Part shown: positions 4,756 through 56,138 of the stretch, piece by piece
Layout of the letters: each line of letters opens with the position of its first letter
Position numbering within the stretch: the first letter of the stretch is position 1
Assembly: GCF_006345805.1 (NCBI RefSeq)
Contig: NC_042997.1
Location: 69,626,001 to 69,690,000, forward strand
Length of the DNA stretch: 64,000 bases
Direction: 5' to 3'
Source of the DNA: Octopus sinensis
Lineage: Eukaryota
Notes under the pieces: model-generated
The model's input: only the letters and a program-made list of their open reading frames with translations
Databases searched by the model: none
What the model was told of the DNA's origin: nothing
Position numbers and translations under genes: made by a program

Positions 4756-6129
4756 TCTTATATAAATATGTAGGCAATATTTTGTTTTCTTTAAAAGTAT
4801 ATTAGACCAATATTTTAAAAGTCCTCTTCAAGTTTTGCCTATGTATGTATATATGTATATATATATATATATATGTGTGTGTGTATGTGTGTGTATAATT
4901 CAGTTTTGGGGATTAATAGATAAGCGGGTATTCTATTTCAGATCATACACAAAAAGTAACCTAATGAGTATATCTGAAAGTAAGCTCATGGTATCCATTT
5001 GCACATTACGAAATAATGCTTTAAAGGATATAACCAGTATATCAGCAGGGTGTATAATATACTTCCTTAATTATCTCCTACTTAAGTTAACACTTAAATT
5101 TATTAATTATGACGGAACTACACGTGTTTCAGTATTGGAAGATTACAATATATATACATACGCACAAATGAATACAAATATATATACATATATAAATATA
5201 TATACGCAATCATCAGATTTACAATTATTCCAACACATCTTCAGGTTCTTTTTCAAAGTATTGTTAATTTTACATCCCTTTAAAAATAAGCGTCAAATTA
5301 AGCAATAAATTAAACATTGAAAATTAAAAATAAAAATTATACTTTGTAATATTAAGAATTAAAACTTATAAATTATACATAATAAATATGAATTAGTATA
5401 TATATCAACCTTATTAAGTCAAGTATATAATGTCAAATACAAAATATAAGATATAAAGTCATACATCAGAATAAAAATGTATGTGTTTAAATGTAAAATA
5501 TACCAAGAAAAATGCAAATACATAATAATAGAGGATAATTTAAATTAAACTATGCATAGTGTAATTACCCACCTTGGTACTAATCACGTTTAAATTCCCA
5601 TAGTTCCCTGCTATCTTCTTCCTCTAATCGCCATTTTGGAAAGAAATATTGGTTCCAACAAAAAGGAAGATATGTATTTGCATTTTTCTTTTAGAAAATT
5701 TTACTATCAGTGTAAAAATATTAGTCAATATACGAGCACGGGGAACATGCTTGATTTGCCTCATACTTATATGTTTAACCTAGGAGTACCTGTTGATGAA
5801 GACTTCGCCTAGCAAATTATTTTATTTGCTAATAGATGGTAAATGATCACACAGGAGATACATGGCAAGTGTTTTTATTTTTCATTTCCTTTGAAATTTA
5901 TCTCTAATAGCGGTTTGGGTTTTGGCTATTCTTTCTAGCGTGCCTATGATGGATACCTCTTATGTGTTTAAATGTACACTGTATTTATATGAATAGTATA
6001 TAGTCTATTGACTAATTTTTCTACACGCTAGGCCTCAGACTCGCTAAAAATTTTCTTACCCTGATATTATTAATTATTGATATTTTTTTGGCAAATTTTC
6101 GAAGTAACTCTAGCATTATTTTATATACG

Positions 6130-6270
6130 CGACAGGATATTTCAATTTCCATCTATCAGGCTTTGGTCGGCCCAGGACCATAGCAGAAGACACTTGCCCG
6201 ATATACCACGCTGTAGAACTGAACCATGTGGTTGGGAAGCAAACTGCTTGCCATACAGCTACACTTGCAC
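6130..6270 (-). mobile_element. tRNA-derived SINE family A, 5' half
   Basis: Reverse complement matches the head at 7000-7125 (ACCACATGGTTC...GGGCAAGTGTCTTCT...GGGCCGACCAAAG). Confidence 0.75.
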
Positions 6271-6479
6271 CTATGATTATTCTCATTCTTCGCTGCATAA
6301 TTGCTTCTAATTTTCTTCAGACATTTCGTTTTGGCTTCAACTCATGCAGTGTGAATAACAGTAGAGGTATGGTATAACTAAAATATGTTACCAAAGTATG
6401 CGTTCGCTGTTGTTGTTCTTGAAACCTAATTCAATCTGCATCAAAAATACAAATACTAAGCTGTCTTTTTATCTTTAAT

Positions 6480-19543: not shown

Positions 19544-20280
19544 CTCTCTGTGTGTGTGTGTGTGTGTGTGTACGTGTGTGTGTGTGCGTGTCTGTGTATG
19601 TGTTTCTTTGCGATGGACAGTAGAAAAGCCACCTACCCTCTCCCTCCTTAAAGCTACGTATTCCTCACACACACTTTCTTTCCTTTCTTCGGCATTTTAA
19701 ATGTGTGTATGCATTTATCTATGTATTTACGAAAGTATGTATGCAGCGTCGCGTGTATATGACGGCTGTATTAACGTTAACATCCCATGGCCACTCCCTA
19801 TTTACCCCGCACTAACACTCTTTGCACCCTTCTCATTTTATCATACAATAGCCTAACCCCACTAGGGGACCCATTATAGATTTTTATTGAAATCCAATTA
19901 GCCTATATTTGAACTGGATGCTAGTTTTACACGTATGCAAAGTTCCTTCAAGATTAGTTTACTGGTGTAGACAGCAAGATGGTAACAGACAGACAGAAAT
20001 TTTCACTTATATTCTTTTATTCTTTTACTCATTTGACTTCGGCCAAGGTGGAACACCGCCTTGCAGGGTGTTAGTCGAAGAAATCGACGCCAGACCTATT
20101 TTTTGTAAGCCTAATACTTATTCTATCGGTTTCTTTTGCCGAAACGCTAAGTTGCAGTGACATAAACACATCAACACCGGTTGTCTTGCGATGGGGTGAG
20201 GACAAACAAAAACACAAAAACACATACATAATTATATACATACATACATACATACATACATACATACATACATACATACA

Positions 20281-20314
<34 letters not shown>

Positions 20315-20474
20315 CATACATGTGTATCGGACCACGGTAATGGTAACATCGTTCTTTTCGTCTGCTGTAAAGCTTAATTCTCAACACGCCAGCTGAATTC
20401 AATTCGTCTCCAGTCGAAAGACGCATGTTGCTAATATCCTGTTATTATTATTATTATTATTATTGTTTTTTTGT

Positions 20475-20725
20475 ATTTATATTCGTGTAACATCGTCCGT
20501 TTTTTTTTGTCCTTGTTTCGTATACATTCGATCCTTTTTCCAAGGAATCTAATGCTCATACTTCAGTTTTTCCTTGGGGCTGGCCAGATTGGAGCAATCT
20601 CAAGATTAATCAGCCGAAATTGCGAGGATGATCCGGTTCTTGACTGAAGATTAAAGGCTTCGAATGACCCGTCCGTGTTTTTTGCATCGTCTATTTGGAT
20701 GTTTTGCGTTCTTGTCCCATTTTGT
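20475..20725 (+). mobile_element. Small non-coding repeat carrying a permuted hammerhead (homologous to ~22060-22172 and ~55380-55615, both minus)
   Basis: Shared GACTGAAGA...CGAATGACCCGTCC...ATCGTCTAT...TTGTCC sequence; ends in (TA)n. Confidence 0.65.
20584..20659 (+). ncRNA. Non-circularly permuted (pseudoknotted) hammerhead candidate, copy 1
   Basis: GCAAT-C-TCAAGA ... AGCC-GAA-ATTGC ... TCTTGA-CTGAAGA-(5 nt)-GGCT; stems I, II and III fully paired. Confidence 0.65.
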
Positions 20726-21234
20726 ATATATATACATATATATATATATATATTTCGTTTCTTTTCTGTTCTCCAAGTAAGTTTTTATATATAATTATGA
20801 CGCGAAACTCTGTAACCCTTTGCTTGACCTTCCCTTCCTTCCTGTCTGTCTTCCTCTTTGCCTTCTCTCTCCTTCTTATTTTTCACCCTTCTGGTTTCCT
20901 TTCCTCTCTATCTCTCTCTCACTCTCACTCCTCCTCATCTCTCACACAGCCGAGTCGACCACTTCCTTTCGCTGGCGGCCTCCTACAAGTGAACATGCTT
21001 TTTTCCTGCGCTCTTGAATTTTTCCATCGTTTAGGCTAAAAAAAGGCCCTCAATGTTTGTTTCCTTGTCCTGTTTTTATTCTTTATTTGTACTGTATTTT
21101 TTTGTATTTGAATTTTCATTTTGTATTTGTTTTTTATTTGTATTGTTTTTACGTCCTGTTTTTGTCACATTTTTTTCTTTCCTTGTTTTTACTCCTCTGC
21201 AAAGGAATTTTATTTAATTCTTTCGGAGGAAGGG

Positions 21235-21312
21235 CTAGTTCGACGAGTTGTGTTCTGTCCTTACCTTCGAAACACGCATGGAGTCGAACTAGGGACAGCT
21301 GATGAAGGGGAA
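21235..21312 (+). ncRNA. Non-circularly permuted hammerhead candidate, copy 2 (divergent)
   Basis: CTAGTTCGAC/GTCGAACTAG outer helix; GTGT-T-CTGTCC ... TTC-GAA-ACAC ... GGACAG-CTGATGA-(4 nt)-GAA. Confidence 0.6.
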
Positions 21313-21570
21313 TTTTCCTTGTATTGTTTGTCTTGTACTCTGTTTTTTCGTTGTTAAAAAAAGTCCGTTTCCATGTTTGTTTTTACGTTTTCGTTTCTCG
21401 TTGAGTTCTACGTCTACTTGTGGTGTCCTGTACTCACATATATATATTTATATATGCATGTATATATACATGTAGATGTAGGTACGTACATATATGTATG
21501 TATGCACATATTTTATTTATTAATTTATTGCATGACTGAGCGCCCTCGCGTCGTTTCGTTTCTTTTCTGT

Positions 21571-21634
<64 letters not shown>

Positions 21635-21700: not shown

Positions 21701-22014
21701 TGGAGGAGCAATAGCCCAGTGGTTAGGGCAGCGAACTCGCGGTCGTAGGATCGCGGTTTCGATTCCCAGACCGGGCGTTGTGAGTGTTTATTGAGCGAAT
21801 ACACCTAAAAAAAGCTACTCGAAGCTCCGGCATTGGGTGGTGGCGATCCCTGCAGTACTCCTTCGCCACAACTTTCTCTCACTCTTTCTTCTGTAGGCCT
21901 GCACGCTTAGTCAGCGGGGTGATGTCATTTGAAGGCTAAAAGAATGCGAAGCGCATTGTGACCAGCGATGTATAGCAACATCTGATAGCCTGGTCGGTCA
22001 CGGTGATCACGGTG

Positions 22015-22015: not shown

Positions 22016-22061
<46 letters not shown>

Positions 22062-22171
22062 GTAAAAAATAAATACAAACATGGACAAGAACAGAAACAC
22101 CAAGGAGACGACACAAGAACCACAGGACGGGACATTCGAAGCCCTCAGTCATCAGTCAAGAACCAGATCAT

Positions 22172-22322
22172 CGGGCTTCTGCCTACCAAATCCATTTAAT
22201 CAGCTTTAATCAGCACGAGGCTATAGTAGAAGACACTTGCCCAAGGTGCCACGCAGCTGGACAGAACTCGGAACTATGTGGTTAAGAGGTAAGCTTCTTA
22301 CCACTCAGCTACGCCTGTGCCT
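22172..22322 (-). mobile_element. SINE family A, 5' half
   Basis: GCTATAGTAGAAGACACTTGCCCAAGGTGCCACGCAG on the plus strand. Confidence 0.8.
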
Positions 22323-24926: not shown

Positions 24927-25740
24927 TTAATTATTTCGGGGCACGATGGACCACCCAAGTAGAGAGTTGTTGTTGGTTGAGACGTATCCAGGTGTAGGTC
25001 GTTTATCCGGTATTTCCTGGAGGAATTTGTCTAGGTACCGTTTGAAAGTTGTGGTGTCTTTTTCTACTTTAATTTCTTTCGGGATAACATTGAAAAGTGC
25101 CGGACCATTTGTAGTGAATAAATTGTGTCGCAATGTTTTTATGTGAAGTGATCTCGATCTTTGTAGGGGACGCATTGCACGGGGGCCTAGTCTTGGGTGC
25201 ATTGTAAACATAATACCGATATCATTTAGATAATATTGGTGGAATATTTTCCACATGGTGCAAATAAGGTATCGCTCACGTCGGCGTTGCAGAGGATAGA
25301 GTTTCAGCTGTTTAAATCGAGTCCAATAATCAAGTATAAATGGCATCATCATGCCATTTATTTTTTTAGTGATTGATCTTTGTGGCGCTTCAATCCTCAT
25401 TATAGCTTGTTTTTTGTAGGGGAACTCGAATGGCAGCAGTATTCGAGGTGGGGGTCTAGCGAATGTGGGGAAGAGAAGGATGATGGCTTCATGATCCCAA
25501 GATTGAAAAGTTCTGAGAATCCAGGTTCTGCGGATAACATCGACTTATTTATTGATACGCACACTCCAGCTAAGGCTCCTGTTGAAGTTACCGAACTCTC
25601 TAATAGTATCCGACGGTTCAAGTAGGTCTCCCGACGGTAGTATGTATGGTTGTTTGAGTGTGCCCTCTTTTCCAAAGTGAATACGCTCAAATTTCTCTTC
25701 GCTCAGCTGAATGTTGTTTTTTGTTTTTTGTGCCCACATA
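24927..25740 (-). mobile_element. CR1-clade LINE 3' end (RT C-terminus), frameshifted
   Basis: PHLEYCC..SSP, IEAPQRSITKKING, DYWTRFKQLKLYPLQRRRERYLI and FKRYLDKFL motifs; ends TAA at 24927. Confidence 0.85.
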
Positions 25741-26114: not shown

Positions 26115-26830
26115 ATTTATGGCAGTAATTACAGTTTGAATTCTACGGGGCATGGCCTCATCACAGATCCTCCCCCACCTTTAACAGTTGGAAGAAGGCA
26201 GTCTGAGTCAAATGTTTCTTTTGGCTGTTTAAACACGTATATTCAAACGGTGGTCTGAAATATGGTAAAGGATGACTCGTCCGAGAAAATAACATTCTTC
26301 CATTGCTCTACAGACCAATTTCGTAGGTTTTTACTCCAATCTGAACGCTTTGTAACGTTTGATTTTGAAAGTATTAGTTTTCTAATTGCAGCCCTCTTGT
26401 GAAATCAGGCTTTGTGCAGCTGCCGGCGAACAATTTTTGTGGAAACTGGGTTCTCGAGGTGGTCATTAGGCTCTGCAGTAATTTTGGGAGCTGTACTTTC
26501 GTAATCCTTTCTAACAATTCGCGTAAGAGTCCGTGGTCCCTATCTGAAAGTTTTGGTTTCCTTCCGGAGTTTTGTTTCGACGAGGAGATTTTTCCCTCTT
26601 TCTCAAAGGCTGTCATTACTTTCGAGAGAGTACTTCTTGATACACCAAATATTTCGGCTGTTTTTGTTACGCAAGCCATACGAACACCAACAATTTGACC
26701 TCTTTGAAAGTCCGATCGATCAATCATTTTAATGAATTTTAATTTCCATTTTCTGATTATGTCTGAAAAGAAACAGTAAGTTTAGCCAAACATATTAAGC
26801 AACAATTGATAATAAATGAAAAAAACATAA
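26115..26830 (-). mobile_element. Tc1-family transposase pseudogene, 5' half
   Basis: SDFQRGQIVG...TAEIFGVSRSTLSKV (HTH), SGRKPKLSDRD (GRPR-like), VIFSDESSF (first catalytic D), PTVKGGGGSVM. Confidence 0.85.
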
Positions 26831-55368: not shown

Positions 55369-55475
55369 GAAATGGAAAAAAATAGAGGACAATAAACACT
55401 CGGATAGACGATACAAGGGCAGACAGGAAAAACAACAATTACATGGACAGGAAAAAATAGGACGGGTCATTCGTG

Positions 55476-55548
55476 GCCTTCTTTCTTCAGTCGAGTTACC
55501 AGATGTTCTTACAGTTTCGGCTAGTTACACTTTAGGCTGTTCGATCTG
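55476..55548 (-). ncRNA. Non-circularly permuted hammerhead candidate, copy 3 (degenerate)
   Basis: Minus strand: ACAG(C)-C-TAAAGT ... GCC-GAA-ACTGT ... ACTCGA-CTGAAGA-(5 nt)-GGC; U16.1 changed to C and two stem I mismatches. Confidence 0.5.
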
Positions 55549-56138
55549 ATTGTCCCTAAAAAAGTCTAAGCTAAGAGCATTATATTTTTTGTAAGAAAGC
55601 TAGTGAATGTGTACGGCAGATGTATATATATATATCTGTGTGTGTGTGTGTGCATGTTCGCATGCGCGTGTGTGTAAATGTATATGTGTAAGCATATATA
55701 TAATCGTCATTTAGAAAATCTTTATTTGCATCGTGTACAGCGAGATCTAGAATGATTATTTGCATATTTACTCTTAAGTATTTACTCACTCCGCTCTCCA
55801 TCTCTGTCTGTCCGTCTGTCTCTCTCTTTCTTACATTTATAATATATATGTGTGTGAGTGCGTGTGCGCATATAAATATGTATTTGTGTTCGTGTGTGTG
55901 CGCGCATGTACATATATATATTTACGTATACTTGCATATTACATTGATAGACAGATTCACAGATACGTGCACACACGCAGACACATACTCTTATATGCTT
56001 ACACTTTATACTCACACTATCTCTTTCTCTATGCCGTCCTGTTACTCAGATCTACGCAATCACACATACATGCATGCATGAATACATACATACATACATA
56101 CATGCATACATACATACATACATACATACATACATACA

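Follow-up and report, generated by a model that had tools for sequence, protein, structure and literature searches.

Hammerhead ribozymes in which the strands of the core follow a non-circular order were described by Eckert et al. 2023 (PMC10085705), who distinguish three blocks: S for the cut site, G for GAAA and C for CUGAnGA. Type SGC, which includes HRIMA-1 and the SGC variant, has been validated experimentally, and the published SGC ribozymes cleave at 0.007–0.13 per min. They come from metatranscriptomes, as environmental RNAs adjoining hairpin ribozymes, and the cited sections of that paper report none from known organisms' genomes, one doubtful GCS candidate aside. A term search of the accessible part of its supplement gives 0 occurrences of “Octopus”. 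In the passages cited here, a November 2026 paper credits alternative permutations to Eckert and Forgia only, and a squid genome paper counts type I matches only. No report of an SGC hammerhead in any genome was found in the accessible part of the open-access literature.

Non-LTR retrozymes are tandem monomers without coding capacity, each with a single hammerhead, and also lie scattered as monomers, dimers and trimers (Cervera and de la Peña 2020, PMC7229834). Their hammerhead is of type I by definition, and they are typically ~300 bp in size (10.64898/2026.07.22.740005, PMC7229834), with a range of 51–972 bp (Li et al. 2026, 10.64898/2026.07.22.740005). Penelope-like elements carry a minimal, dimeric hammerhead shortly before their 3′ end (PMC4209133) and form partial tandems and inverted 5′-truncated copies at microsatellite targets (PMC4209133; Craig et al. 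2021). Naiad elements are said to lack hammerheads (Craig et al. 2021, in the part cited).

Structure of the Two Hammerheads

The window analyzed here is a 64-kb stretch of the Octopus sinensis genome. One site in it had been predicted, from the letters alone, to be a hammerhead with its strands in a non-circular order. The segment positions and letters are as predicted in 13 of 13 cases, and all hammerhead core nucleotides are in place (CUGAnGA, G10.1–C11.1, GAAA and UH). This ribozyme belongs to a repeat family referred to as family A and has the following parts:

20594..20605, forward strand: block S, with stem III′ at 20594–98, C17 at 20599 and stem I′ at 20600–05; 5′ ends of copies pile up at +1..+16
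3′ side of C17 (20599), forward strand: predicted cut
20606..20611, forward strand: 6-nt linker from stem I′ to stem II′, its middle positions conserved at 0.88–1.0
20612..20623, forward strand: block G, with stem II′ at 20612–15, GAA and stem III at 20619–23
20638..20659, forward strand: block C, with stem I at 20638–43, CUGAAGA at 20644–50, a 5-nt insert at 20651–55 and stem II at 20656–59
20584..20590 with 20630–20636, forward strand: outer helix, 82% paired, with double changes in 3/6 pairs and 5 tree switches
20576..20580 with 20666–20670, forward strand: possible closing helix P0, weak (74% paired, double changes in single rows only)

A second ribozyme of the same architecture, family B, was found 640 nt downstream:

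21235..21310, forward strand: family B type-SGC hammerhead, unrelated in sequence to family A, with a 1-nt insert; closer to the published consensus
21249–53, forward strand: stem III′, followed by H17 (U21254), stem I′ at 21255–60, stem II′ at 21265–68, GAA and stem III at 21272–76 (blocks S and G)
21293–98, forward strand: stem I, followed by CUGAUGA at 21299–305, the 1-nt insert and stem II at 21307–10 (block C)
21235–44 with 21283–92, forward strand: outer helix of 10 bp

The order in the window is S-G-C, which is the type SGC of Eckert et al., and the permutation is therefore already known. The original prediction had left undecided whether its family was among the published ones. The order is, but the family itself is not, since the cited sections of that paper report none from the genomes of known organisms. 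The window copy had also been called the best preserved, which holds among the family A copies of the window, although the family B ribozyme is equally intact.

Block order, core, the tether between stems I′ and II′ and the two pseudoknots are the same as in the published type SGC, as far as the cited part of that paper goes. The published SGC ribozymes often have a 1-nt insert after CUGAnGA, as family B does; family A differs from them by its 5-nt insert and 6-nt linker. A published helix that joins both flanks of block C was not found by inspection of the family A and B alignments. Instead, the outer helix connects blocks S and C through their 5′ flanks. This helix, which was part of the original prediction, is supported by covariation, although the window copy has one A–C mismatch in it. 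In the published SGC variants shown, GAUUA stands at the end of stem I′ and in the linker; by eye, young family A subfamilies have it one base further on, and older ones are without it. At 20661–20667, past stem II, family A has a conserved CGAAUG, and the linker has a conserved UAA; these might make a tertiary contact between stems I and II, which is speculative.

Searches built on other assumptions pass over these sites. Rfam finds no hammerhead at E ≤ 10 in 20300–21450, which is expected, the order being pseudoknotted; for the whole window, only microsatellite-driven miRNA matches appear among the 150 of 361 matches listed. The nested minimum-energy fold of the window family A copy has another, non-catalytic pairing (z 0.38), a method that is uninformative for the S-G-C order. 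The descriptor given in the cited part of PMC10085705 requires CUGAUGAG or CUGAUGAUG and allows stems III and I to lie no more than 15 nt apart. When re-implemented, it accepts 0 of 187 relaxed matches in 1.03 Mb, and it is thus understandable that these ribozymes could be overlooked in a search of RefSeq.

Two other readings were considered. A type I hammerhead that uses the downstream CGAAUG has, by inspection, no partner for stem III or stem I. Across tandem units, the blocks can be read as CSG or GCS, but both are rotations of SGC, so that a canonical order never arises. A scan of all six block orders in 268 kb gave 35 matches for SGC, 15 for GCS (one of ≥13 bp), one for CGS and none for the rest.

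Conservation and Covariation

Alignments were made from 24 copies of family A and 20 of family B, picked by eye to span subfamilies and to keep block S and an intact 5′ part. In the 24 family A copies, stems III, I and II are paired in 97.5%, 97.2% and 94.8% of cases, respectively, compared to 27–52% when slid by 1–3 columns. Double changes occur in three of five pairs of stem III, four of six of stem I and one of four of stem II, and the covariation score was reached by 0/500 shuffles. A tree built without the stem columns requires at least 10 Watson–Crick switches in stems I–III, some of them perhaps linked; the switches in the outer helix come in addition. In family B, 85% of cells are paired and double changes are seen in 8/14 pairs. 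Covariation of the three stems across genomic copies, which had been named as a check on the fold, is thus present, with about 10 independent pair switches in family A.

Stem II has the weakest covariation in family A, with two invariant and two variable pairs, the third pair being mismatched in one old subfamily. In family B, stem II includes two G–U pairs; one subfamily has CG for UG at the third pair, which fixes the register at a 1-nt insert.

The invariance of GAAA, CUGAnGA and GG is partly forced by the search patterns, whereas block S, UH and the stems are not forced. In an unbiased sample of family A copies that retain block S, 39 of 59 match the full descriptor. H17 is C in 36 of these 39 and A in three, and the U16.1–A15.1 pair is kept. 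These positions, which lie outside the anchor pattern, are compatible with cleavage.

The motif might be a chance run of hammerhead-like words in a repeat, with covariation that stems from shared ancestry. CUGAnGA alone is a frequent word (38 in the window versus 26 expected), and the shuffle control of the pair counter takes no account of kinship among the copies. However, a relaxed S-G-C descriptor is matched at just two sites in the window, with CUGAnGA at 20644 and 21299, and at none in 200 shuffles. The S block pairs in 15 of 30 genome matches, many of the other 15 being 5′-truncated, but is unpaired in 80/80 metagenome matches to the pattern, a negative control made up of chance matches only. 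The ~10 compensatory switches are independent on the tree, and the same architecture recurs in a second superfamily. Coincidence is thus largely refuted and has a negligible probability. The predicted S-G-C order and pairing scheme are upheld by stem covariation, by the structure of the copies and by the footprint of their 5′ ends.

The Five-Nucleotide Insert

In the window, 5 nt separate CUGAnGA from stem II in family A and 1 nt in family B. The insert, between A9 and G10.1, is 5 nt long in 37/39 intact family A copies and 6 nt in the other two, with a variable sequence; in the old subfamily set, it is 4–6 nt. Versions with 0–3 nt have only 17 matches in the genome, versus three for the control. 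Pairing between the insert and the linker was considered and rejected, since only 59% is paired, double changes are absent and 241/500 shuffles do equally well.

The cited part of Eckert et al. 2023 (PMC10085705) has no alignment with more than 1–2 bases between CUGAnGA and the adjacent stems. Family B, with its 1 nt, lies within this limit, and family A lies outside it. In Penelope hammerheads, a single extra base between 9 and 10.1 is usual (PMC4209133), and the insertions described in the consulted portion of PMC3088659 are other small core insertions, none of them 5 nt in size; a 2-nt core insert impaired one natural hammerhead (PMC3088659). The 5-nt insert is a real departure and could slow or abolish cleavage.

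The Host Elements

The genome of O. sinensis is 2.72 Gb in size and contains many microsatellites. The family A pattern has 8,200 matches in it, compared to two for a reversed control, and the family B pattern has 9,642, compared to 108. Family A copies share a fixed 3′ end ~125 nt past the cut, followed by (TA)n, while their 5′ ends vary. Tandem copies are spaced at 687–851 nt in family A (15 pairs) and at 805–833 nt in family B, and dimers, trimers and inverted 5′-truncated copies are found. Six monomers have a longest M-ORF of 47–131 aa and no RT or GIY-YIG ORF; the strand that carries the ribozyme is 67–70% pyrimidine. When A and B monomers were compared, no match fell below E 0.011. The window contains the following copies:

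20331..20724, forward strand: family A element, 5′-truncated, its fixed 3′ end running into (TA)n; full monomers elsewhere are 687–851 nt
20754..21574, forward strand: family B element, just over one unit, with a 21-nt terminal repeat; inserted into the (TA)n that follows the A copy on its 3′ side
22037..22173, reverse strand: family A copy, truncated inside the ribozyme, with block C and the 3′ end only
55452..55615, reverse strand: old, diverged family A copy, its stem III and stem I sequences different

Further high-copy interspersed repeats, SINE-like by look, lie beside the elements at 20006–20193 and 21703–22000, and no tRNA genes were found in the 64-kb window. There are ORF fragments at 24927–25544 and 26374–26781, both on the reverse strand, which we take to resemble the C-terminus of a LINE RT and the N-terminus of a Tc1/mariner transposase, respectively.

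Families A and B are two superfamilies of retrozyme-like, Penelope-style retroelements, both present in the window. The supposition that a small mobile element carries the ribozyme is borne out by the non-coding tandem copies with fixed 3′ and variable 5′ ends. Both families have the non-coding tandem monomers with one hammerhead each by which non-LTR retrozymes are recognized, the same dispersed monomers, dimers and trimers, and a genome that also holds Penelope-like elements, as described in the cited part of PMC7229834. Their monomer length falls within the retrozyme range. However, the hammerhead of neither family is of type I. The SGC elements thus behave as non-LTR retrozymes yet fall outside their definition.

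With Penelope-like elements, as far as the cited sections of PMC4209133 and Craig et al. 2021 go, they share the partial tandems, the inverted 5′-truncated copies, the microsatellite targets, the position of the hammerhead shortly before the 3′ end and the extra base between 9 and 10.1. Unlike them, they have no ORF, and their hammerhead, with a 5-bp stem III, is complete as a monomer.

5′ Ends of the Genomic Copies

Copies were sampled through an anchor 3′ of the ribozyme, independent of the 5′ end; the A sample comprises the first 100 of 4,415 matches listed and the B sample 71 copies from the first listed of 862. The 5′ end is the point where similarity to full-length copies stops. In family A, 25 of 100 ends lie at +1..+16 from the predicted cut, which amounts to 20.3 per 1000 nt at risk against a background of 2.9 downstream and 3.1 upstream (p 2e-10). 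Of all 16-nt windows, the best one begins at +1, and 0/5000 simulations equal it. The edge of the pile-up is sharp at +1, with only three ends in −15..0, and most of its ends are at +3..+14, not at +1. Without junctions classed as internal deletions, the ratio to background is 8.8 (23 events; 98 rows after stricter de-duplication). At positions that start with TA, AT or AA the ratio is 7.6 and at others 7.7, and target microhomology is therefore no explanation. In family B, 12/71 ends lie at +1..+16 (ratio 4.0, p 4e-4), and the best window begins at +5 or +6; the ratio is 7.7 once the deletion class, which in this family also takes in inversions, is removed.

The simplest reading of the pile-up is that the RT often copied linear RNA with its 5′ end at the cut. 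Many copies run through the site, for which circles or uncleaved multimers would be needed. So read, the pile-up would be indirect evidence, written in the genome, of cleavage in vivo. Two internal deletions have one end exactly at the predicted cut: one in family A (L188), which resumes at +28, and one in family B (L244), which resumes at +1. Re-joining of a cleaved end, or a template jump there, would be expected to leave such deletions.

In both superfamilies, the type-SGC hammerhead is real and conserved and is probably active. We consider it likely that a non-autonomous, retrozyme-like retroelement uses this doubly pseudoknotted hammerhead as its processing ribozyme. Cleavage 3′ of C17 would turn tandem copies or read-through transcripts into unit-length RNAs, the 5-nt insert of family A being looped out between A9 and G10.1. 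A host ligase would close some of these RNAs into circles, a step that has been shown for type I retrozymes. With a (TA)n site nicked, a Penelope-like RT/GIY-YIG protein provided in trans would then prime at a TA-rich stretch inside the element, and the RT would copy in the direction of the 5′ end of the RNA. If the template is linear and cleaved, it would run off at or just before the cut and so produce the pile-up at +1..+16, whereas on a circle or an uncleaved multimer it would pass the site and leave more-than-unit copies, dimers and trimers.

The fold could also be real and selected while family A cuts weakly or no longer, because of its insert. The motif would then be a recognition or packaging structure, and the pile-up would mark an internal transcription start or an RT stop. 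The insert is without precedent in the portions of the papers compared (PMC10085705, PMC4209133, PMC3088659), and minimal Penelope hammerheads cleave poorly in vitro, according to the cited part of PMC4209133. Vertebrate retrozyme dimers have a single published test, as given in the cited part of 10.64898/2026.07.22.740005, in which only 1/9 cleaved. Internal promoters are described for Penelope pLTRs (Craig et al. 2021, in the part cited), and a transcription start at the place of the pile-up is possible; the concentration of ends at +3..+14 rather than +1 also speaks for such a source. However, the pile-up stops sharply at +1, with just those three ends before it, and family B, whose sequence beyond the core is unrelated, shows it at the corresponding position. 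For an RT that travels 3′ to 5′, the helices at +20..+57 would presumably come first, and ends there are no more frequent than background. U16.1–A15.1 and H17, moreover, which the anchor pattern leaves free, stay compatible with cleavage. A structure that does not cut is accordingly given a small share of the probability, and a processing ribozyme remains the preferred reading.

Penelope-like Elements as Possible Partners

Intact Penelope-like ORFs in the genome are 775–781 aa long, with an RT plus a GIY-YIG domain at the C-terminus, and the elements end at (TA)n like the SGC elements. Their linker motif C-x4-C-x2-C resembles that of Neptune/Nematis in the cited part of Craig et al. 2021, by motif alone. 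The autonomous elements examined carry minimal type I hammerheads with a palindromic stem III, read by eye, such as the following:

L131 5540–5600: type I hammerhead of a Penelope-like element, with a U3–A8 core variant
L138 about 5050–5110, reverse strand: type I hammerhead of a Penelope-like element

At L131, a 479-aa ORF1 (874–2310), with no Pfam family above cut-off, lies upstream of and overlaps the RT–endonuclease ORF, and another repeat flanks the Penelope copy on both sides (20–448 and 5955–6383); its hammerhead is type I-like, stem II being long. Naiad elements were considered as carriers of the SGC motif; the Penelope ORFs that were recovered have their endonuclease at the C-terminus and come with type I motifs. 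From the shared insertion anatomy, we infer that the SGC elements are mobilized in trans by Penelope-like proteins.

The SGC hammerheads could instead belong to the pLTRs of an autonomous Penelope-like family that is absent from the sample in full-length form, with the tandem units derived from it. Vertebrate retrozymes match pLTRs, according to the cited part of 10.64898/2026.07.22.740005, and a B-type core lies ≤2.5 kb downstream on the same strand at 4/53 loci with Penelope protein matches. At L122 (about 2690, reverse strand), a single case, a Penelope 3′ end is joined directly to a B-superfamily element without (TA)n; if this junction arose by an RT template switch, it would name the partner. 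However, the other three of the four loci have (TA)n in between and look like co-insertions, and the Penelope copies examined have a type I-like hammerhead of their own. Family A was found at 0/30 GIY-YIG loci, and a loose screen of 16 longer Penelope loci gave an SGC core at 0/16 (three flagged sites are not SGC), among the best 150 of 5029 GIY-YIG candidates that were scored. Unlike retrozymes with a pLTR relation, the SGC elements have no pLTR homology in a comparison of six monomers with four Penelope-like families, few as these are, and no similarity was significant (best E 0.023). Derivation from an autonomous family is thus improbable, even more so than a fold that does not cut, and mobilization in trans of a non-autonomous element is preferred.

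Implications

The S-G-C permutation was already known, and what is new here is the presence of type-SGC hammerheads in animal genome repeats. Non-circular hammerheads had been known only from environmental RNAs without a host, and their biology could therefore not be studied. A high-copy animal family provides a named setting, thousands of natural variants for structure–function work and a direct test of function. Two working rules are broken: that animal retrozymes use type I hammerheads and that no more than two extra bases are tolerated in the CUGAnGA block. The absence of Rfam matches, together with the 0/187 of the published descriptor, shows why standard searches miss SGC motifs. The pile-up of 5′ ends also gives a way of reading ribozyme cleavage in retrotransposition from genome sequence alone; for Penelope hammerheads, in vivo evidence of cleavage was lacking, according to the cited part of a 2014 paper (PMC4209133).

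In its widest form, the proposal is that two animal retrozyme superfamilies, old but young at their tips and with ~18,000 recognizable cores, run on active non-circular hammerheads, one of them a new core variant with five extra bases; that the permutation arose or was acquired independently of viroid-like environmental RNAs; and that genomic 5′ ends record cleavage in vivo. We put the chances of this whole statement at about even. If it is true, motifs of this kind may have gone unnoticed in other retroelements that circular-order descriptors led to be counted as ribozyme-free.
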